Below are positions 2,928 to 64,000 of a stretch of 64,000 bases of DNA, piece after piece. Every line of letters begins with the position of its first letter. The stretch's first letter is position 1. The notes beneath the pieces were generated by a model that saw only the letters and a program-made list of their open reading frames with translations, was not told the DNA's origin and did not search any database. Position numbers and translations under genes: made by a program. This DNA is from Octopus vulgaris (Eukaryota): positions 3,906,001 through 3,970,000 of the forward strand of contig OX597816.1 of the NCBI GenBank assembly GCA_951406725.2, written 5' to 3'.

Positions 2928-2929
<2 letters not shown>

Positions 2930-3123
2930 GAATGGTTGTATACTGTCAATCTAACGTGAACGTGACAGTAGCGGGTTACACCACCGCTGTTTAGCCCTAG
3001 GAAGCATCGACGGTGGTGTAACCCCCTACTGTCACCTTCACGTTAGATTGACAGTATACAACCATTCTATAGCCCCACCACCGTACATATCCCTATGAGA
3101 GATTTAGAAATTTAATATTTCTG

Positions 3124-3125
<2 letters not shown>
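2928..3125 (+). mobile_element. Fold-back element FB1 between (TA)n tracts
   Basis: 59-bp inverted arms (2928-2986 / 3011-3069, 2 mismatches) with a 24-nt loop, then the tail motif GAGAGATTTAGAAAT..ATTTCT. Confidence 0.85.
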
Positions 3126-3154
<29 letters not shown>

Positions 3155-4747: not shown

Positions 4748-4950
4748 TTTCATCAACACAGCAGCTGCTTGGCCAGGTGCCGCTACTTTAAAGATTTGTG
4801 ACTGAATGTCTCTCTCTCCCTCTCTGAGAGATTTGAAAATAATAGTATTTCTATTTATAGATCAGAGACTGTGCGTCCCTTTGAAGTCTATATGTTCGAA
4901 CCGTGAATTTAGCAGCGCCACCTGGCCAAACAGCTAATCTGTGTTGATAA
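4748..4950. repeat. Degenerate inverted repeat FB2
   Basis: TCAACACAGCAGCTGCTTGGCCAGGTGCCGCT vs AGCGCCACCTGGCCAAACAGCTAATCTGTGTTGA; spacer contains GAGAGATTTGAAAAT..ATTTCT. Confidence 0.65.
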
Positions 4951-5284
4951 AGGGCAATAACCGTGAAACTAATACACAGATGTCGTTTTGTGCTAAGTGA
5001 GGATACTGAATTCCCTTTTCAGGGAATATAAGGACACAGATAGTGTGGCTGAAAAGCTCCTGGCTTTAAGGTTCCCGCAAAATGCCTGCCTTGAGACCCG
5101 AACTTCCGAGTTCTTTTACAGAGCTTAAAAAACCGAAGGATAGTTACAATAACCGTGTGAAAGTTAGAGGGGAATATGTTCAATTAACTGAACCTCTTGC
5201 ACTATTTTTTTACCCCAAACCAGAAATAATTCTGCACTTCTCGTATATATATGTGTGTGTGTGTGTATATATTTATATATATAA

Positions 5285-6396: not shown

Positions 6397-6607
6397 CATA
6401 TATATACACACACACGTGTATATATATCCACACATACACACACACGTGTATATATATACACACATACACACACACGTGTATATATATACACACATACACA
6501 CACACGTGTATATTTATACACACATACACACATATGTGTATACATACACATATACACACACACACACATACAGACAGACATACATAGGCACATGCATAGA
6601 CACATGC

Positions 6608-6730
6608 AGAAAAACAAAAGACTAAAACAGGTGTATAAACAACAAGTAGGTGCATTAGTTTGATGCTCGGGAAGGTGAGAAAGTCCTTTACGTTTCGAGC
6701 CTACGCTCTTCAACAGAAAGGAACACAAGA
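6608..6730 (-). mobile_element. Short element family F with HHR-like motif
   Basis: Minus strand: CTTT-CTGTTGA-A-GAGC-GTAG-GCTC-GAAAC-GTA-AAGG; copies at 13108-13285 and 50779-50903. Confidence 0.75.
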
Positions 6731-9061: not shown

Positions 9062-11164
9062 AAAGCTACCTCCGCCTTATAGAATTCTTTGAAAATAAAG
9101 AAACAGAAGATAACTCAATCATAAGAAAAAAATCCCACTTCACCCCTTACAAGTGAAGTGACAAACACCTTGACACATACATAGAAACAATATCCAAATT
9201 CCCTCTCCACAAACACAAATGCAAACAGAATCTCCGCAGAGAAGAAAAACAAGCCCTACAAAAACTGAAAAATGACAAATCAGTCATTATAAAAGAAGCT
9301 GACAAAGGTGGAGCAATAGTAATTATGGACACAGATTACTACAAAGAAAAGATACTGGAGTTACTGAACAACCAGACATATTACAAAGAGGAACCAACAC
9401 CACCGGAGAAAACAACAATAAAAAAAAATTAGAACTTTAGTCAATGAATATCAGGACTCCTTTACAGATAAGGAGGAAGACTATCTATGCAACTCACAAA
9501 CCAAAGAAAGCAACTTTTATGGATTACCTAAAATTCATAAAAGCTCGGAAATACAGAGAGCCATAAAGGAACAGAGGAACCACTACATAAGAGTACAAAG
9601 GCCTGCAGACCTCACAATGAGACCAATAGTGGCAGGACCCCAGGCACCAACACAACAACTAAGCCACTTCATAGATATACTCCTCAAACCTTTATGCCCA
9701 CAGATACCAAGCTACATAAGGGATGACATAGACTCCCTCACACACATTCCAAATACAGTCCCGAAAAACACCATACTTGCAAGCTTTGATGTCACAAATC
9801 TATACACAAACATACCACACACCCTAGGTCTAGAAGCTATAAAACAATCAATAGAAAAATACAGAGAACTTATAGACGAACGCTTTAAGACAAACTTTAT
9901 CACCCAAGCCACCCAACTAATACTAGAAGAAAACACATTCTCATTCAACAAGACATACCGACAGATAAAAGGCACAGCTATGGGTACAAAATTCGCACCT
10001 TCATATGCCAACCTGGTGATGGGTTTCCTGGAGAAAATACTATATGACGAAATAGGGAAAGTCTTCGAACACGACTTCAGAGAAGACATCAAGAAAAAGT
10101 GGAAACGCTACCTCGATGACTGCTTCATCTTTTGGAACAGATCAGAAGAGGACCTACAAACATTCCACAACATCCTCAATACGCTGCACCCATCTATCAA
10201 TTTCACAATAGATACCAGCCACAACGAACTTCCCTTCCTAGACATCAACATCAAAATACACAACTCCATCGTCACAACAGACATCCACTACAAAAAAACT
10301 GACACACATCAATACTTAAATTTCCACTCCTGCCACCCATCCCACACAAAAAGAAACATCCCATATAGTATGGCACGACGAATATGTAGCATAGTAACTG
10401 ATTCACAAATACGATTAATAAGACTAGATGAACTCAAAAACTTCCTCCTAGAGCAAAAATACCCCCTTAAACTAATAGAAAATGGAATCACAAGAGCATT
10501 AAAACTAGACATCTCACAACTCAGGACACCCAAAACAAAAAACAAAGAAAACACTATCCCTTTTATAAACACGCACAACCCTGGAGTTACCAACATCTTC
10601 CAAACCATACATTCAAACCTACCAATAGTCTTACAAAGCCCCAAAATGAAAAACATATTAAACAAATATAGCATAAAAAACAGTAGACGACAGGACAAAA
10701 ACCTAAAAAAACACCTAACAAGAGCGAAATTCTCTTCAGAAACTAAAACGGAATTCTTTGCAAAAGAGTGCGGAGATGATAGATGTGGGATCTGCAGCAA
10801 CCCCACCTACAAATGCATAGAGAGTAACAGAGGGATGAGATTTAAAAATGGTGACATATTCAAAGTAAATGCAGATATGAATTGCAAGACGCAGAACGTT
10901 ATATACTGCATAACCTGCCCCACGTGCAAGGAGAATTACGTAGGTGAAACTGGTAATTCTTTGTGCCAGCGAGCCAGGATCCACCGACAACATATTCGGC
11001 AGGAAGAACTACGCAAAATACCACTAAGCACACACCTAGCTACATGTGGAGAAGGAAAATTTAAGATCTTTCCCTTCTACAAGTGTCCGAAGAACGACAC
11101 CTCCTTCAGGAGGAATATGGAAAAACATTTCATAGCTAAGTTCTCCCCCAAATTAAATGGCTGA
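9062..11164 (+). pseudogene. Penelope-like retroelement ORF (RT + GIY-YIG endonuclease), disabled
   Basis: Upstream frames give IIKEADKGGAIVIMD and NFYGLPKIHK. ORF 9617-11164 has RPIV, SFDVTNLYTNIP, GTAMGTKFAPSYANL, RYLDD, LPFLD, YKKTDTHQYL and GIY-YIG (NVIYCITCPTCKENYVGETG..R..H). Premature TGA at 9154-9156 and a +1 frameshift in the A-run at 9420-9428. Confidence 0.95.
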
Positions 11165-12329: not shown

Positions 12330-12450
12330 ATACACACATGTTCTCTCTCTCACTTCCTCCTCATCTACCTCACCCTCTTATACTATCTTGTTCCTCCCCA
12401 CTACTACGAAACTCTATAAAATGACCAAATTCCCCACAAAGGAATTAATT

Positions 12451-12491
12451 TGATTTGAAAACCCCACTGGAATGGGAGAAAGCGCTAATAA
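12451..12491 (+). ncRNA. Degenerate hammerhead motif in the PLE 3' region
   Basis: TTGAAAA-CCCC-ACTGGAAT-GGGA-GAAA-GCGC-TA with palindromic helix III (AGCGCT); core mutated. Confidence 0.4.
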
Positions 12492-12597
12492 TCTGAATGA
12501 TATGATCTGAATGATATGATATATATATGTAAAAAATGTAATATATAAATAAATATCTATAAATATGAACCATCCGATCTTCTGATTACCTCATTTC

Positions 12598-12664
<67 letters not shown>

Positions 12665-12778: not shown

Positions 12779-13043
12779 TCAATTAATAATGAAGGGTACT
12801 ACTTGTAGTGCCAGCATGCTAAAAATAGCAGTCAAAACGACTCAAAACGACTCAAAACAAAGATGAAATCGAGGAAACGGGCAGTAAAATCTGAAGACTC
12901 CGTAGAGTAGACGAAAAAAATCGAAAATGAAAATGAATTCGATTTCGCCCCTATGTACAAGTGAAAACTATGGTTTTGAGTCGTTTTGACTGCTATCTTT
13001 AGCATGCTGGTACTACAAGTAATACCCTTTCATTATTAATTGA
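12779..13043. repeat. Fold-back element FB3
   Basis: ~70-bp inverted arms (TCAATTAATAATGAAGGGTA..GCAGTCAAAACGACTCAAAAC and its complement at 12974-13043); 10-bp internal duplication in the left arm. Confidence 0.85.
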
Positions 13044-13107: not shown

Positions 13108-13285
13108 TCGCTAGCCACTACACACATTTTTTCTCTCCTTGCTCCTTTCTGTGGAAGAGCGTAGGCTCGAAACGTTAAAGACTTTTTTCAATTTCCGAGC
13201 GTTATACTAATACATCTGTTTGTTGTGTAAATCAAAAGACGAAGACCACCTGTCTTTATCTTTTGATTTTTTGTGAATTCTCCCC
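13108..13285 (+). mobile_element. Family F element with HHR-like motif
   Basis: CTTT-CTGTGGA-A-GAGC-GTAG-GCTC-GAAAC-GTT-AAAG; 3' end abuts (TA)n. Confidence 0.75.
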
Positions 13286-13374: not shown

Positions 13375-13808
13375 GGAGACAGGGAGAAAAAGAAAGGGAA
13401 GATATTTTAAACCATTCCATTCTTCATCCTATTCTGATGACGAACAATATCCGAACCGCACTAACAATCAATATTTTTTCTATTTCTTTGAACGCCAAAC
13501 TTATAATTTTCACTTTCAAATTACCTCGTCGTTTTGTTCTCGACTTTCTGTTTCTCTTTTCATAGTCATGTACACGTATACAGGCACACAGTCACACTCA
13601 CGTATGCACACACACTCATATACACACACTCATACAAACACGTAAAATGTATTACACACATATTTATATTCATGTTTCTTCTCGAAATAGAAACAATTTG
13701 ACTGTTTTTAAATGAAAAGTACACTGAAGGACTACAGAGTACTTTTTATTAAAGTACATTTTACAAAGAAAATTTTGGCAGTGACTATTTAGTTCGTTCG
13801 TCTTCATC

Positions 13809-13857
13809 TGACAGTCCGACGAAGGATGGTGTCCTTGAAACTTCGAAGTCATTGTCA
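13809..13857 (+). ncRNA. Type-I hammerhead ribozyme-like motif (CCGACGA core)
   Basis: TGACAGT-CCGACGA-AGGA-TGGTG-TCCT-T-GAAAC-TTCGAA-GTC-ATTGTCA; 7-bp stem I, perfect palindrome ACTTCGAAGT as helix III, GUC site. Confidence 0.7.
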
Positions 13858-13957
13858 AATATTTTTCTTGCCAAAGTTTAATACATACATGCACAAACCC
13901 ACCCTCCCAAAAATACAGATGTAGATAGGGCTAAAATCCAAGAGTGTACTTGTAGGC

Positions 13958-14152
13958 TCGTGTGTACCGTTGGCGATTCTTTTCCTCTGTCTTCCCTTCT
14001 CTAGATCTTTCCTTCTCCTATGTTTCCGACGAAGAGCTCCGCTCGAAACGTTAAACCCTCCTTCTTCCCTTCTTTCCTGAGCGTCCAATAATACTATATT
14101 TGTTCCACGTCCTCGCGTTGTTGTGTTTTTTTGTGTTTTCTTGTTTGAATTA

Positions 14153-15317: not shown

Positions 15318-15367
15318 ATTTACTAATTATATGCTATTTATTATTTTGTACTGTATTAAGATTACTT

Positions 15368-15435
15368 AATAACCTTTACACTTCAAAAACTGTATTAAGT
15401 AATCTTAATACAGTTTTTGAAGTGTAAAGGTTATT
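15368..15435. repeat. Perfect 32-bp hairpin (FB4)
   Basis: AATAACCTTTACACTTCAAAAACTGTATTAAG-TAAT-exact reverse complement. Confidence 0.95.
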
Positions 15436-30516: not shown

Positions 30517-30688
30517 TTAACCACAAACAAGATGAGGACAAATATCCGTCAAATGTAAATGATGTAAATAATATATATATATATATATATACATATCTAT
30601 AATAAGATTAGCTCGTATACGAGTGGGTATATATTTGTAAAAAATGAAGTTTGAATATGCTGCTATATTAGACAAATTTTAATTTAAA

Positions 30689-30731
30689 TTTAACATGTTT
30701 CGGTTCTTGAAATAACGAACCTTATCAAAAA
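30689..30731 (-). ncRNA. Degenerate hammerhead motif
   Basis: Minus strand: TTT-TTGATAA-GGTTC-N10-GAACC-GAAAC-AT-GTT-AAA. Confidence 0.5.
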
Positions 30732-31602
30732 AATTTATATATAATAAAGAGAGTCCATGCTATATATTTAAAGAGTATGATGTAATAGTTCATAATTGTG
30801 ACATATATATATATATACACACCACTGCACGCGAGTATGTCTATGTATGTGTGTGTGTGCTTGTTTGTGTGTATGTGTGTGATTATTATTTCTGGTGTTG
30901 CCTTTTTGTATTGTCCTTATATAAAGAAGGGTCACATTATGTGCCTGATTGTTTGGTGTATGTAAGGACCACTGCACCGGCGTGTAAATATTTATGTGTA
31001 TCCCAGAGTAATACTATATCTGTGTGAATACAGCCAATGTTTTTCTCTTTCTTTTGTTTGCCCATATAAGCGAATGCATACGTACACTTGTGTAACCCTT
31101 TACATATACCTATGTACATGTATGTGTTCGTGCGCGCGCGCGTGTCTGTGCGATTGGGTGTGCATGCGTGTATTTATGATGTATGAGGATAAGTAGGTAT
31201 CCTTGTATGCAATGTCTTTTTGTCTGTGTGTGTATGTGTGTGTGTGTGTGTGTATTTATATATATATATGTATGTATATATATATATATATATATATATA
31301 AATATAAATATATATATATACATACATATACCAGCAAATACACAGACACGTATACATAGACACACATACGTATGTGTATGTGTGTGCCTGTGTGTTTAAT
31401 TATTCTCCGTGTACAACACGGAGACTATATCTTTTCTAACTCACGCCATCTTGTTTACATAAGAACCTTTTTTTTTCCTTTTAAAAGCGCTTGTTTGTTT
31501 CCATTCTCTATACTGATTAAAACACAATATCGATAGCTGTCGTCTAGTGACACTGTATGAGGTGTCTACGTAAATAATCCCATGATGGAACGAACAACTT
31601 TG

Positions 31603-33349: not shown

Positions 33350-33871
33350 TGAGGGCTTGCGTCGCAACAGTGCTTCGGTGCATCGATCATTTGGTGGTGG
33401 TTTCCTGCCCCTGGCGTATATCCCCTTAGCATCGTGGGTCTGTTTGGGTAGACGTTGCTGCGGAGGGCTTTACGAAGCCCGGCTGCCAATTCCACTTCAG
33501 TCTCTTATAGTCGCGTTTTACGACAGACAGACAGAAACGCTGGGTGTATTCTTTAGACATGCCGACCCCTATACGGTACTAGAGCAACGTGAAATGAAGT
33601 GTCTTTGCTCAAGAACACAACGTGCCATCCGTCCTGGAATCGAAACCACGATCTAGCGATTGTAGTTGAACCACGAAGCTACGCGCCTTCATCGAGTGTT
33701 GCAAAATAAATAAATAAATAAATAGAAAGAAAACACTCCAAGAGTCACTAATTTTGAGACACGTTTCAAGAATTGCTCAATGTGCATTGGTCCAGATCAT
33801 AATGGCAACAAAAACATAAACCAATAAAAAAATAACAGAATGAAGACGCCATTACCGCATGTCTGATTTCA

Positions 33872-34326
33872 ATACCTATTTCTTTACTACCCACAAGGGG
33901 CTAAACACAGAGGGGACAAACAAGGACAGACAAACGCATTAAGTCAATTATATCGACCCCAATGCGTAACTGGTACTTAATTTATCCACGCCGAAAGGAT
34001 GAATGGCAAAGTCGACCTCGGCGGAATTTGAACTCAGAACGTAACGGCAGACGAAATACCTATTTCTTTACTACACACAAGGGGCTAAACACAGAGAGGA
34101 CAAACAAAGACAGACAAACGGATTAAGTCAATTATATCGACCCCAGTGCGTAACTGGTACTTAATTTATCCACCCCGAAAGGATGAATGGCAAAGTCGAC
34201 CTCGGCGGAATTTGAACTAAGAACGTAACGGCAGATGAAATACCGCTAAGTATTTCTCCCGGCGTGCTAACGTTTCTGCCAGCTCGCCGCCTTTCTGCCA
34301 GCTCGCCGCCTTTCTGCCAGCTCGCC
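33872..34326 (-). mobile_element. Nin-like-domain SINE (family C), partial tandem dimer
   Basis: Minus strand: GGCGAGCTGGCAGAAACGTTAGC (A box)..AGTTCAAATTCC (B box)..GAGGTCGACTTTGCC.TTCATCCTTTCGG..ATAAATTAAGTACCAG. Confidence 0.85.
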
Positions 34327-39500: not shown

Positions 39501-40965
39501 AATGTGGTACTATAAGCCTTATTGCTATAAAAAATACAATGCTATAAAGGAAAGTACTGTAAAATCTATAAAATGTAAACAGATTTTTATGTAGGTGCTT
39601 AACAATGTAGATTTCAACAGAACATTCTATAGGGGGAGAGAATATGTTTCACTTTGCTGCTAACTGCTGTCCAAAGCAACTGTACCGAAAATACTTTAGA
39701 ATATGGATTTGAATATGGAATGATTTAAAATGCAGGAAGGACATTTTAGCTACATCACCTTCTAGTTATTCCGTAGCCAAAGAAAATCGATAAATCGTAA
39801 GCAGTTTCGATGTTTTGTAGAATCTGGAATTTGTTTGGTCATATATTTTGGGTATCGATTTGAGATAGACCTTGACAAAAACTGTCAGACTAATTTAAAG
39901 CAGCAGAGGTTCAAGAACTCTGCTGTCATGATAAAACCCTGGTCTGTTTTCTGAAACACGTAAATTCATAAAAAAACAACCGGAAGTTATGTCAATCTCA
40001 ACCACCCAGTCGCAGAAAATGTTTGGACAGATATGAATGACGTTTCTCTCAGAATTATGGCTTCTGTGAAAATAACGACAGAAATGTCGACAGTGCTACA
40101 GAAGGAAAAGGTAATAAACTTTAATCTGTGTAAGTGGTTAATATCTTAAATATTCTTTGAAATCTCTTGAAACAATATCCCGTGGTGAGCGGCATGTGTG
40201 CTCATGCGTCTTGGTTTATTAAGGGCTGATTATCTGTAAAGAACAGCTGCTTTCTTAATGTGACAGATTACGAAAGTTCGATTTACGATATTTGATAAGT
40301 GCTTGCTTAAAGTTAGTCGCAATTTAAGCAGCGATAAACGATATTTATCAATCAGATATCCTCCATGTTGACATATTCCGATTTCCTTATGTCATTATGT
40401 GATGTTAGTCTATATGACGCATATTCCAAAATATTAAAGAAACTGTTTTCGGTGATAAAAACATTGATAATTCATTACTAAGAGATACAAATCTTTGTTT
40501 TAATGTCACTTTTTACATTTGTAGTAACTTCGTTGGAAAGTGACTTAGTATTGATTAAAAATCAACCAATTTTGTCTATGATTGTATTCTGAAAACAAAA
40601 TGAATAAAAATCTAACCCTGGTGAACGTTTAAAGCTAACATTCAGATATAAAACTATCGTGACTTTCATTGTATAGCTTCGCGTTCTGAGTTCGCATGTC
40701 GCTGGTATCAACTTTACATTTCATATTTCTGGGTTCCGTCAATTGGAGCATCAGTCACAACCTTGATCCGTCGTACGGTATGTGTTAGTAAAAGTGTTAA
40801 TAAGAGAAATAGGATGGGGCTTAAAATTGTTTAAGAAATATGGCCCTAAGACAATGCATGCTACGAGCCATCAGATGGTTCCAACTGGAATTTATTTATT
40901 GGTATTTTAGGGATGAACTCATCACTGCCTTCCCGCATTTTTAATCTTTGAATTATCTATTTATT

Positions 40966-41420
40966 GTGATGGTTTGTTGCCCACTTAATGTGGCAGTCCC
41001 AGGAAAGGGAAGAATGTTACTGCTATTTAGCACCAAGAAACACCGTTTCTCGTTGACTACGTGACACAAGCATTCTGTGTCCTTAACTTTTCAAACAAGG
41101 GAGATAAGTACCTCCACCCAACAAAGCCAGCATCCAGAGAATACCGACAGCTAGCAAACCAAGCTACTTCAGACTGATGAAGGACAACTACTCTGAAACT
41201 AGTCTCTGGTTGGAAGTGCTTATCTCCCCTGTTTGAAAACATAAGGACATAGAACGCGTGTGCCACGTAGCCAACTAGAAACGGTGTTTCTTGGGGCTAA
41301 ATAACAGTAGCATTCTTACCTTTCCTGGGACTGCCACGTTAAGTTGGCAACAAACCACCACTTTATCCTGCTTCTACTGTATAACTCTCTGAGAGATTTA
41401 GAAATGCAATATTTCTAATT
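40966..41420 (+). mobile_element. Fold-back element FB5 with a hammerhead in the loop
   Basis: ~155-bp imperfect inverted arms (40966-41120 / 41207-41361); tail motif GAGAGATTTAGAAAT..ATTTCT at 41391-41416. Confidence 0.85.
41170..41208 (+). ncRNA. Canonical minimal type-I hammerhead ribozyme
   Basis: CAGA-CTGATGA-AGG-N8-TCT-GAAAC-TA-GTC-TCTG; intact core, palindromic helix III (ACTAGT), predicted GUC cleavage after 41204. Confidence 0.8.
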
Positions 41421-42054
41421 ATCTGTTTACTGTCTTTGCTCTAACTTCATCATCCCTGTTTCTATTTACAACTGCATCGCTGATGGAGAATATTTTTCTT
41501 TTGCTTGAGTTTAGTTGTGTTTTGAAGTTGTTTCTTATGTTGTTGGTGTAGTTGCAAGTCTGAATTGTTGTCGCTGATGTTGCAGTGTCTTTCAGCTGCT
41601 TTTTGATCTTGTTTGTATTTGTGAGGTTTTTTCTGTTTTTGATTTTGATTCTGAAGTTGTAGACTTGCTTTTGTTAATGTTGTTGTCTCGGTATCAGTGA
41701 CTGCGGTGGAGGTGTTCGATGAATGGTACCAGTTTCTTCTACGTTTCCTCAAACCCTCAAGCATATTTTGTTGTGTCTGGGGAGAGTCATTCTCTTTTAG
41801 TTCCTTATTATTTAACACACTCACTGGTAAAGTTTCCACTCATTTATTTATTGTTCCTAAAATTCTCGTCGCTTCCTGCAACCTTTTCAATAGTCATTGA
41901 CTTTGTCCGTTATCCGAGTTGCGTTGAATGCCAGACAGAGGGGTCACACAGGAGAGCTAGGAAGAAGGGGAGATAATAAAGTAGTGGTGATCCCAAAACG
42001 AAAGTGCGCGTACTTTAATACGTATATATACATACACTTTTACATACATACACT

Positions 42055-50327: not shown

Positions 50328-50380
<53 letters not shown>

Positions 50381-50383
<3 letters not shown>

Positions 50384-50708
50384 TTATTAAATCTCAGAAC
50401 GAGATGTAAACAGTAATCGCTCGACAATGTAAAGTATTATAGCCATCTTAATATGGCTAACCACAAAAGGGGGTGTTACTGTAGCTTTTTAGCCCCAGGA
50501 GATCATCGTCTCCAGCTGGCTTTAGACACAATTTCTGTGCCCTTATGGTATTTGCAATACCAATACCAGAAAGGGGTGGCCTCCCTTTGCAAATACCATA
50601 AGGGCATAGAAACTGTGTCTAAAGCCAGCTGGAGATGATGATCTCCTGGGGCTAAAAAGCTACAGTAACATCCCCCTTTGTGGTTAGCCATATTGAGATG
50701 GCTATAAT

Positions 50709-50714
<6 letters not shown>
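50381..50714 (-). mobile_element. Fold-back element FB6 inside (TA)n
   Basis: ~128-bp arms (50430-50557 / 50587-50714) with about 6 transition mismatches and a 29-nt loop; minus-strand tail CTGAGATTTAATAAT leads into (TA)n. Confidence 0.9.
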
Positions 50715-50778
<64 letters not shown>

Positions 50779-50781
<3 letters not shown>

Positions 50782-50900
50782 CTGTAGAAGAACGTAGTCT
50801 CGAAACGTAAAAGACTTTTTCCATTCCTGAACGTTATACTAATACATTTGTTTGTTTTGTACACCACCTGTCTTCGTCTTTTGTTTTTTTCGTAAACTCT

Positions 50901-50903
<3 letters not shown>
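50779..50903 (+). mobile_element. Family F element between (TA)n tracts
   Basis: TTT-CTGTAGA-AGAACGTAGTCTC-GAAAC-GTA-AAAG. Confidence 0.75.
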
Positions 50904-50966
<63 letters not shown>

Positions 50967-52428: not shown

Positions 52429-53673
52429 TTATATATATGTGTGTATGCATGCATCTATCTATCTATATACACATACACATACACATACACGTATGTGCGT
52501 ATATTTATACGCGTATATGCCTTCTTTGTTTTGCAAAATTGTTGATGTGAATTCGTGTGTCGAAAAACCAATATTGTTATACTAGGGGATGGTCATATAT
52601 CACCAGTTAAACACACGCTCGATATATTTGTTCTTCACTTCAGGTTTATTCTTATATTCTTAGATGATCATTATTTTAGTTTCTTTAACAAAAGGAAACA
52701 CGTGAAATAGAGAGTCGTGCACGTGGTCATAGCAAGTGCGACAAAAAAAAGCTAAAATAATATGAATACAGCTGAAGTGAAAACCAAATATACAGAACGT
52801 GCGTTTAGTTGGTCACATTTAACCATCTCTAAGTAGAACAATATATATGCGTTCAAAAGCACATCAACTACTCTGATATACTTGAAAAGTAAACCGTGCT
52901 ATCGTGATAAAAATAGTAAGCAAATCTTCCTCAAACCATGACTTAGAAAAGTTACTATTGAAAGAAATTCGTTCCATACTCTTGATGTGGGATTTTTTCA
53001 TTTCGTGAACACCTCGCAAAGTCAACAGATTTTTATTTCAGTTGGCAAGACTCCAACTTCCTGATCGACCATAGCTTCTCCGCGACCATCGACAACATCT
53101 CAAAAACAATTATTCAAAGTAGTCGAACCGAAAAGCGGGTCTTTTCTCGTTCACAGCTTCATCTTGGTACTTCAACAGTTTTAAACATTGTTGGCTTCTC
53201 CAGCAATAACTGAAGTCAAAAGGGGATTTCATCAGCCATAATTAGGCCCTAACAGCATTTTGGCACTAAACCAAACCCCAGCTCTTGAAGGAAAAGCTTA
53301 TGAACGACTCTCCTTCAGTCAATACGAGGATTTTCTCTGTTGAAGACCTCATCTCCTGACTCAGAAGCTCCAGGGACTCTGTGGAAGATATTTAACCGTC
53401 GTAAATTTATTTTCTCCATTAAGTTTTCTTCATGCTCTGATCTAACTTTGGCTTCATAAACAATTTAGTTTATCAAACACAAGGGTTTCGACAACTACTA
53501 CTGGAAGTGGGCCCCTGGTGGGACTTACGTATGATGATGTTCTTCATATCGGGGCAACAGTCGGTCGTCTGAATTCCTTAACGAGCTTCCACTAAAACAA
53601 TCTTTCTGTATATAAGTGTATGCGGGTGTGAAAAATTATGTATTTATGTGTATACACACATGCATGTCTGTAT

Positions 53674-57859: not shown

Positions 57860-57931
57860 TCCTCGGTAGTATAGTGGTAAGTATCCCCGCCTGTCACGCG
57901 GGAGACCGGGGTTCGATTCCCCGCCGAGGAG
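57860..57931 (+). tRNA. trnD-GTC: tRNA-Asp(GTC)
   Basis: TCCTCGGTAGTATAGTGGTAAGTATCCCCGCCTGTCACGCGGGAGACCGGGGTTCGATTCCCCGCCGAGGAG; perfect 7-bp acceptor stem, GTC anticodon, intact A/B boxes, G discriminator. Confidence 0.97.
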
Positions 57932-57944
57932 GCATCTCAATTAT

Positions 57945-58365
57945 AGGCGCAGGAGTGGCCCTGTGGTAAGTAGCTTGTTTACCAATCACATGGTTCCGGG
58001 TTCAGTCCCACTGCGTGGCATCTTGGGCAAGTGTCTTCTGTTATAGCCTCGGGCTGACCAAAGCCTTGTGAGTGGATTTGGTAGATGGAAACTGAAAGAA
58101 GCCCGTCGCATATATGTGTATATATATATATATATATATGCCTGTGTGTGATTGTGTGTGTGTGTGTCTGTCCCACTAGCATTGCTTGACAATCGATGCT
58201 GGTGTGTTTATGTCCCCGTTACTTAGTGGTTCGGCAAAAGAGACCGATAGAATAAGTACTGGGCTTACAAAAGAATAGGCCCTGGGGTCGAGTTGCTCGA
58301 TTAAAGGCGGTGCTCCAGCATGGCCGCAGTCAAATGACTGAAACAAGTAAAAGAGTAAAAGAGTA
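57945..58365 (+). mobile_element. SINE A (full length)
   Basis: Starts 13 nt after the tRNA; tail abuts the mariner TIR. Confidence 0.92.
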
Positions 58366-58367
58366 TA

Positions 58368-59244
58368 TGTAGTCTGATCAATAAATATCCGGACTTTAGC
58401 TATTGTAACGAAACGGAAGCACGCAGAGTAAAGCCACTTGACACAGATTGACCTTGACCTCTGCTGTGAGTGTGCACTAAGTTTCAACGTTCTAGCTTTC
58501 TTCTGCTGTTTACAACAGTGCTGAGAAGGAAGGTGTGTAGCGTGTGACTGTCGCATTGACCATGACAGAGAAAGTTGTTATGGGGATACCTGCTCAGTGG
58601 AATACTCATAGTTACAGAAAGTGTATGGAAAGGAGTGTATGATCCGCACACAAGTGTACGAGTAGTTCAGACGTATCCAAGATGGCCGATATTGACAAAT
58701 GTTCTGGGAGACCCCCCAACCTGCAGAACCGAGAAGAAAGTGCAGAAAGATGTACGTGCAGCTGCGAGGGGAAATCGTCAAATCACTATCAGTGAGTTAT
58801 CAGAGTATGTGAAGGTTCGTTACGGTTCAGTTCAATCCATTATCACTGAAGATTTAGATATGAGACGCCTGTCTGCCAAGTTTGCGTCAAAACTGCTTTC
58901 AGCTGACCAAAAAGACACTGGGGTTTCAGTTGCACAAAATTTCCTTAGTTGTATCTAGAACGATGAAATCTTTTTTGAAAACTTCGCGTTGGCCTCTGAG
59001 CAGATATCAGCAAGCGTTTGGTTAAATTTGATGCATATTCTCTGCTCAGCTTTCTGTCAAAGTCAATGCAGCGATCACACGCTACACACCTTCCTTCCAA
59101 GCACTGCTGTAAACAGCGGAAGTGAGCTAAAATGTCAAAACTGCGCATGCACAGCAGAGTTTAAGATCAACTTTTGACAAGTGGCTTTACTCTGCGTGCT
59201 TTGTTACTATACCAATAATCCGGATACGTATTGATCAGACCACG
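58368..59244 (+). mobile_element. Mariner-derived non-autonomous element
   Basis: TA|TGTAGTCTGATCAATAAATATCCGGA ... TCCGGATACGTATTGATCAGACCACG|TA; transposase HTH remnant NRQITISELSE..YGSVQSIITEDLDMRRLSAKF..LLSADQK. Confidence 0.9.
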
Positions 59245-59324
59245 TATATGCAAGGCACACACTCATAAATACTCGTCTGGTTCCTTCCTTCCTTCTTTTC
59301 TTCCTTCATACTTACCTACCTATC

Positions 59325-62735: not shown

Positions 62736-64000
62736 GATCGATAAAATGACTTAGCGTGTCACCAACCGTGATCAATAAAATGACATAGAGGTTTGCTAAA
62801 TGAGATTGATAACATGACTTAGTGGTTCGACAAACGAGTTCGATACAATGACTTAGGGCTTCACCAAACATGTTCGATAAAATGAGGTAGCGGTTCGCCA
62901 AAAAGATCGATAAAATGAGGTAGCGTTTCGCCAAACATAAACGAGAAAATGACTTAGCGGTTCGCATACGAGATCGATAAAATGCCATAGCGTTTCGCCA
63001 GACGAGATCGATAAAATGTCCTAGCGGCCCGCCAAACAAAATTGAGAAAATGAAGTAGCGGTTCGCCAAACGGGTGCGATAAAATGACTTAGCGGTTCAG
63101 CAAACGAGATCGATGAAATGACTAAGCTGTTCGCCAGACGAGGTCGATAAAATGACACAGCGGTTTGCCGAAAGAGATCGATAAATTGACGGAGCGTTCG
63201 CGAAACGGGATCGATAAAATGACCTATCAGTTCGACAAAAGATATCGATAAAATGACATAGTGCTTCGCCAAACGAGATCGATAAATTGACGTAGCGGTT
63301 CGCCAAACGAAATCGATAAAATGACTTAGCAAATCGCAAAACGAGATCGATAAAATGACTTAGCGGTTCGGCAAGCGAGTTCGATGAAATGACTTAGCAG
63401 TTCGCCAAAAAGATCGATAAAATGATGTAGCGGTTCGCCAGACGGGATCGATAAAGTGACTAACCGGCTCGGCAAACGAGATCGATTAAATGACGTAGCG
63501 CTTGCAAAATGATATCGATAAAATGATCTAGAGGTTCGCCAAACGAGATCGATAAAACGACGTAGCGTTCGCGAAACGAGATCAATAAAATGACTTATTG
63601 ATTCACCAGACGCGATCGATAAAATGAGTTAGCAGTTCGCCAAAAAGATCTTTAAAATGACCTAGCGTTTCGCAAGACGAGATCGATAAAATGACTTAGC
63701 GCTTCGGCATACGAGTTCGATGAAATGACCTAGTAGTTCACCAGACAAGATCGATAAAATGACTTAACGTTTCACCAATCAAGATAGATAAAATGACTTA
63801 GCAGTTCGCCAGACGAGATCGATAAAGTGACTTAGCGGGTCGGCAAGCGAGATGGATGAAATGACTTAGCGGTTCGCCAAACAAGTTCGATAAAATGATT
63901 TAGCAGTTCGCCGCCAAACGAGATCGATAAAATGACTTAGCAGTTCGCTAAACGAGAACAATAAAATGAATTAGCGGTTCTACAGACAAGATCGATAAAA
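62736..64000. repeat. 34-bp tandem satellite (about 37 diverged units, runs off the window)
   Basis: Consensus GATCGATAAAATGACTTAGCGGTTCGCCAAACGA. Confidence 0.95.

Follow-up and report, generated by a model that had tools for sequence, protein, structure and literature searches.

What kind of element leaves several hairpins in one short stretch of an octopus genome that share a sequence motif and differ in the length of their arms? The stretch analysed here (the window, 64 kb of Octopus vulgaris contig OX597816.1) contains three such fold-backs, FB1, FB5 and FB6, which a sequence-only reading had attributed to an unclassified family of asymmetric hairpins. We consider it likely that they are truncated, head-to-head retrozymes with a predicted hammerhead, inserted by a borrowed Penelope-like RT/GIY-YIG enzyme. 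The features concerned, including those of a related copy close to position 4826, are as follows (window coordinates, strand in brackets).

2878-2926, (TA)n target tract to the left of FB1
2928-2986 and 3011-3069, FB1 arms, 57 of 59 positions matching
2928-3012 (-), FB1 tail-less arm, monomer positions 224-302, terminating at the short 3' site
3011-3125 (+), FB1 tailed arm, monomer positions 250-358
3124-3148, (TA)n target tract to the right of FB1
4769-5050 (+), 4826 copy of a fourth related family, the tail (to ~4853) running on into monomer positions 1-196
4944-4975 (+), degenerate hammerhead of the 4826 copy, UUGAUAA core
40951-40963 (+), FB5 left target-site duplication, 13 bp with one mismatch
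40962-41143 (-), FB5 tail-less arm, monomer positions 119-300
40966-41120 and 41207-41361, FB5 arms, 136 of 155 positions matching
41140-41419 (+), FB5 tailed arm, monomer positions 58-358
41174-41204 (+), predicted type I hammerhead ribozyme in the FB5 'loop' (CUGAUGA...GAAA...GUC), from motif and fold
41417-41429 (+), FB5 right target-site duplication
50329-50381 and 50713-50779, (TA)n on both sides of FB6
50382-50557 (-), FB6 tailed arm, monomer positions 181-355
50427-50557 and 50587-50717, FB6 arms, 124 of 131 positions matching
50564-50717 (+), FB6 tail-less arm, monomer positions 158-310

The common architecture proposed for the three hairpins is borne out, with arms, 13-mer motif and tail all in place and (TA)n tracts confirmed on both sides of FB1 and FB6. 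The motif TTTAGCCCYARGA matches the window five times at one mismatch or fewer against 0.23 expected, a number reached in 0 of 100 shuffles. FB1 has it in the loop (2990). FB5 and FB6 have it, as had been claimed, in their arms: at 41026 (one mismatch) and 41289 in the two arms of FB5, and at 50488 and 50644 in those of FB6. In FB1 the motif TTTAGCCCTAGGA (2990-3002) falls within the tail-less arm and is missing from the tailed arm; it appears as a loop because only the longer arm of FB1 extended into the motif sequence. The arms do differ in length (59, 155 and 131 nt).

A tail is present beyond each hairpin, and its motif (at 3099, 41393 and 4828, and at 50383-50395 on the minus strand) begins 27-30 nt past the arm rather than the 30-35 nt first given. 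The FB6 variant is found on the minus strand, its ATTTCT half being absent. The FB1 tail occupies 3070-3125 and includes a terminal stem-loop. In its loose 13-mer form the tail motif has 14 matches in the window against 9.9 expected, which is not significant alone, and the match at 10837, within a Penelope-like element (PLE) reading frame, was rejected as chance. Searching the 2.8-Gb genome for exact matches to the 27-nt tail pattern gives 1158, compared to 0 for the reversed control. Other inverted repeats in the window, at 12779-13043, 15350-15435, 52571-52844 and 58364-59248, carry neither motif nor tail.

Retrozyme monomers and their predicted hammerhead

Judged by their sequence, FB1, FB5, FB6 and the 4826 copy all derive by truncation from related ORF-less monomers, that is, from non-LTR retrozymes with a predicted hammerhead. 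We ran four initial genome searches, three with window stretches and one with a tail-free stretch of a relative, and took the best 30 loci of each. Monomers delimited from tandem loci are 358, 358 and 355 nt long, within the 150-450 bp of non-LTR retrozymes, copies that run beyond the tail re-entering the monomer start, and head-to-tail read-through dimers and one trimer are present among the copies. The arms, which had been described as divergent, are not unrelated: they are homologous, the FB1 and FB5 monomers being 64% identical across 287 nt, and six colinear families, among them that of the 4826 copy and two further ones, align at 46-64% identity. We saw no ORF in the monomers, no LTR pair in the segment maps of the copies, and no RT plus GIY-YIG ORF in cis with retrozyme copies. 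The most common target-site duplication is 13 bp, exceeding 4 bp as in non-LTR retrozymes. The label 'unclassified' is not supported, since the elements can be assigned to the hammerhead-bearing non-LTR retrozymes and have the inverted-copy-plus-tail structure published for PLEs.

A motif search finds a type I hammerhead motif in every monomer, and FB5 retains it at 41174. Pairing was assessed in 47 distinct segments anchored on the core and its spacing (fixed by a regular expression) and not on pairing. Stem I pairs 1-3 are kept in 43, 44 and 41 of these, stem II pairs 2-4 in 46, 45 and 46, and the stem III pairs in 45 and 44. The stems covary, with pairing at 0.83 as against 0.63-0.68 for shuffled partners, a comparison between related sequences and hence given without a probability. 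Core positions 3/8 are C-G in 31 segments, U-A in 14 and U-G in 2; a U3-A8 variant is described for PLE hammerheads in the accessible text of PMC4209133. An Rfam search of the window and two monomer stretches returned no hammerhead match, and the folding of tails in isolation and of the two window hammerheads does not surpass that of shuffled sequences (z from -1.3 to +0.5). The full-circle monomers are predicted to be strongly self-paired (z of -8.0, -4.2 and -3.4). A separate, well-formed type I hammerhead motif at 13808-13860 (+), with a CCGACGA core and a 7-bp stem I, is unrelated to the six monomers.

The closest known counterparts of these monomers are the metazoan non-LTR retrozymes, such as the 350-390-bp repeats of mussels, as far as those are described in the accessible text of Cervera & de la Pena 2020 (PMC7229834). 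Common to both are an ORF-less monomer of ~355 nt, a type I hammerhead, low GC, tandem copies, long target-site duplications and a strongly self-paired predicted circle, and stem II of the FB1 hammerhead has a U-U at its base, a feature reported there for axolotl HHR_Amex2. The copies differ in being mostly dispersed, truncated and often inverted, and whereas circular RNA and cleavage are shown in that work, here both are putative.

Two 3' ends and the insertion reaction

The anatomy of insertion was compared across 151 chains from 150 loci (the best 30 loci per search), of which 129 were left after 22 duplicates had been removed by flank similarity. One retrozyme insertion on contig C29 (L039-L042, L046, L047, L052, L053, L058-L060) has been amplified within a larger local repeat and counts as two chains after de-duplication. 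Outer 3' ends pile up at two positions in each family, the end of the tail and a site 45-57 nt inside it. The 80 head-to-head insertions comprise 59 with one tail end and one short end, 1 tail/tail, 0 short/short and 20 with some other end, part of these being LINE insertion points. Independence would give 29.5, 17.6 and 12.4 for the first three classes, from marginal counts in which tailed ends are inflated because most queries contained the tail. Inner ends range over the whole monomer, and inner junctions show overlaps of 1-27 nt or short patches copied from nearby sequence.

The association of tail and hairpin holds beyond the window: of the first 28 distinct loci from a search with the tail pattern, chosen with hairpins ignored, 18 are head-to-head and 10 contain no inversion, and 9 of the 28 read through. 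A flanking duplication of 9 nt or more accompanies 43 of 72 non-microsatellite insertions, FB5 included, compared to 10% of mismatched controls; lengths of ~9-19 bp are common. Microsatellite (TA)n is a preferred target, adjoining 53 of 125 insertions as against 44 of 618 background points. In shape the retrozyme insertions have the published PLE footprint, an inverted copy and a tail, described in the accessible text of PMC8557442 and PMC3846280; that of PMC11167929 reports two RT start sites and extension of both strands in vitro.

In the mechanism that we favour, the template would be a multimeric or circular retrozyme RNA. The enzyme would nick the two strands of AT-rich DNA at points staggered by 10-15 bp, and each nick would prime cDNA from one start site, either at the tail end or 45-57 nt inside. 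The two cDNAs would stop independently and then be joined by microhomology or short templated patches, and the expected outcome is a hairpin with unequal arms, a one-sided tail and a 'loop' consisting of the extra sequence of the longer arm. The earlier view of the hairpin as a product of insertion whose inner junction varies is supported, the fold-back points that we compared spanning the whole monomer. Its plain fold-back origin fits poorly. The 55 clean cases comprise 31 in which the tail-less arm exceeds the tailed one (FB1 among them), 15 with the reverse and only 9 symmetric ones; the excess of the tail-less arm is above 30 nt in 17 and reaches 454 nt. Fold-back of a tailed arm cannot yield sequence that is absent from it, and fold-back of a short arm cannot make a tail, which favours two independent cDNAs joined end to end over simple fold-back. 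The tail-less end is also where 10 of the 12 non-inverted copies from the tail-free query stop, and is therefore not a fold-back stop point.

The fold-back mechanism of the sequence-only reading, kept with the same element and PLE enzyme, has one cDNA prime itself, with the unequal arms arising later by loss of the palindrome apex, an idea close to one in the accessible text of PMC3846280. It draws on the 9 symmetric cases, several of which turn at a palindrome within the monomer, around position 218-237, and on the two youngest testable copies, neither of which is asymmetric by more than 15 nt. The comparison of asymmetry with age (rho 0.23, p 0.16, n=38) did not show the two to be independent, and later deletion of the palindrome apex is therefore a possible source of unequal arms. 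The preponderance and size of the tail-less excess and the use of the short end by non-inverted copies nevertheless make self-priming unlikely.

Relation to Penelope-like elements

The genome contains three PLE families whose RT/GIY-YIG frames are long and intact (775, 781 and about 1200 aa). These coding elements likewise have two ends, ~40 nt apart, and occur as head-to-head pairs in (TA)n, with 17 and 9 rows at the two ends in family A and 5 and 2 in family B, the rows not being de-duplicated. Their tails, of ~40 nt, are shorter than the 45-57 nt of the retrozymes. A PLE-type inverted copy plus tail, like that of this genome's own coding PLEs, makes the suggested PLE link likely. None of the three intact families proved to be an autonomous PLE with this tail, and they were found to share no sequence with the monomers. 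Profile matches within these PLE loci are co-located retrozymes where inspected (L209, L215, L293).

The fold-backs might instead be solo pLTR stubs of a yet-undiscovered coding PLE and not a self-standing retrozyme. Stubs of coding PLEs have the same look, and protein queries could have missed a divergent Hydra-clade element. Set against this, copies return to monomer position 1 beyond the tail in 9 of 28 tail-selected loci, and the PLE-protein matches among the loci are unlinked neighbours where inspected; we regard the stub interpretation as very unlikely. The hairpin shape and TA-rich flanks would also suit a Tc1/mariner-type MITE or other DNA transposon with terminal inverted repeats and a TA duplication, a reading left with almost no probability: its constant repeats and 2-bp TA duplication are refuted by the variable arms, the single tailed end, duplications of 9-19 bp and the 10 of 28 tail-selected loci without inversion, in agreement with the original rejection of a fixed MITE repeat.

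The retrozyme insertions share with those of EN+ PLEs (accessible text of PMC8557442, PMC3846280 and PMC11167929) a head-to-head 5'-truncated copy, a one-sided tail lying between the RT start sites, partial tandems, (TA)n or AT-rich targets and a hammerhead in the repeat. They differ in the lack of an ORF and in a tail of 45-57 nt as against the published 30-40 nt. Target-site duplications of EN+ PLEs are given as 8-10 bp in Adineta in these sources (Craig 2021, PMC8557442; Arkhipova 2013, PMC3846280; Frangieh 2024, PMC11167929).

The mobiliser of animal retrozymes has so far been argued from co-occurrence and phylogeny. PMC7229834 proposes PLE mobilisation from co-occurrence, its main text, as accessible, being without the word 'inverted'. 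The preprint of Li, Clavereau & Pollet 2026 (10.64898/2026.07.22.740005) also treats animal retrozymes as non-autonomous PLE derivatives; its basis is distribution and phylogeny, mostly in vertebrates, compared to insertion anatomy here, and the accessible text does not contain 'tail' or 'target site'. Thousands of ORF-less copies with the PLE-specific two-start-site footprint provide direct genomic evidence and name the exact RNA sites, and the pairing of one tailed with one short end, together with the unequal arms, bears on how PLEs build inverted structures. The kind of element and the hairpin-plus-tail shape are known; what is new is the insertion-level tie of ORF-less retrozymes to PLE chemistry, and their LINE parasites. 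The papers listed by a literature search, largely outside the subscription journals, include none on cephalopod retrozymes or on retrozyme-targeting LINEs.

The window contains several PLE pieces of its own. A copy of a young family, one of the three intact ones, at 9074-11164 (including 9422-11161) and 12414-12609 encodes RVT_1 and GIY-YIG with a CxxC linker and has a frameshift near its 5' end. Its intact relatives have two overlapping frames, and a scan of them found no canonical hammerhead. Stubs resembling the 3' end of a third PLE family, with a minimal hammerhead-like motif, lie at 50775-50912, 13127-13224, 6604-6727 and 14019-14105, and one of them has a (TA)n tract in common with FB6. 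A pLTR stub of the 781-aa family is at 30593-30760 (-).

LINEs inside the monomers and possible promoter signals

At several loci an APE-RT LINE or its 1.6-kb ORF1-only relative is inserted 25-32 nt 5' of the hammerhead core, with its own 10-18-bp duplication and an AATAAA end. Several Tx1-like families and the ORF1-only derivative behave in this site-specific way, sometimes in tandem (L121-L126, L129-L188), and L125 is a full-length LINE of 5.3 kb; the 64-kb window contains no such monomer-inserted LINE. ORF2 encodes APE, RT and zf-RVT domains and ORF1 a CCHC domain, this zinc knuckle exceeding the Pfam cut-off in 1 of 5 ORF1 pieces. In an RT tree of 19 rows that included no named Tx1 reference, the LINEs stand apart from L1-like rows with weak support (89/90).

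Site preference was assessed from 3'-end searches with two families, LINE-A and LINE-B, examining 30 of 40 matches for each and excluding the discovery loci from the counts. LINE-A is directly followed by monomer in 26 of 28 cases and by the target motif and a second LINE in the other 2. Of 29 LINE-B copies, 22 run into a monomer and 1 into the motif and a LINE; another 3 sit off target, and in 3 the 3' end is missing. Among themselves LINE-A copies have a median identity of 98%, their targets being 75% alike, and 186 of 378 pairs combine a LINE above 95% with a target below 75%; copies so alike in targets so divergent imply largely independent insertions. Seven LINE-A 5' junctions are visible. 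Monomer sequence precedes the LINE at 5 of them, and (TA)n or an inverted tailed arm at the remaining 2 (L142, L144). The latter suggest that the LINE is occasionally carried as cargo, deletion being the alternative. At L176 a LINE-B flanked by a 14-bp duplication is inserted into a non-retrozyme sequence, ~50 nt ahead of a CUGACGA motif; this target may be another promoter-bearing repeat.

Their intimate association with the monomers might cast the LINEs as the mobilising enzyme of the retrozymes, an idea with next to no chance of being right given that they lie inside the monomer with their own duplication and AATAAA end, have no 3' end in common with it, and that the two-end pattern occurs in PLEs. 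The known parallel is with target-specific Tx1 LINEs, listed in the accessible text of Kojima 2015 (PMC4494074) as Tx1 in Tx1D, Tx1-Mar in Mariner-N4 and Keno in U2. Both are APE-RT LINEs with a zinc-knuckle ORF1 that use one site of another repeat and re-insert in tandem. The octopus LINEs differ in using a retrozyme as their target, at a site ~30 nt behind a TATA-like box, and in that one family is ORF1-only (1.6 kb); they add a target class to Tx1-type specificity.

The LINE site is 28-32 nt 3' of the TATA-like box in the monomer, a spacing that hints at capture of a putative retrozyme promoter. U6 genes have a TATA ~30 nt upstream. Inspection by eye of 12 U6 loci, 6 of them with a TATA at about -30, revealed no upstream element shared with the monomers. 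T4 runs are scarce in the bodies of FB1, FB5 and FB6 (0.3-1.5 per kb, against 2.7-4.8 for A4; shuffle p 0.05), and a run of T4-T5 occurs within 11 nt past their tail ends, a hint of a Pol III signature from which the 4826 family departs with 7.8 T4 runs per kb.

With slightly more doubt than confidence, we can picture a three-tier chain of parasites. Retrozymes would have a TATA promoter of their own and circulate as ribozyme-cut RNA, and their insertion would be the work of a PLE dimer that primes the two DNA strands from two sites on a single RNA. The Tx1-like LINEs and the ORF1-only derivative would target the retrozyme start site, take over the promoter and at times travel as cargo of the PLE reaction (L142, L144).

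Divergent U6-like genes form a tandem array at L340-L343 with ~1.1-1.4 kb spacing. The window additionally contains a tRNA gene with a GUC anticodon (57860-57931), a 184-bp tandem SINE-like pair (33871-34244) and a 34-bp minisatellite (62736-64000).
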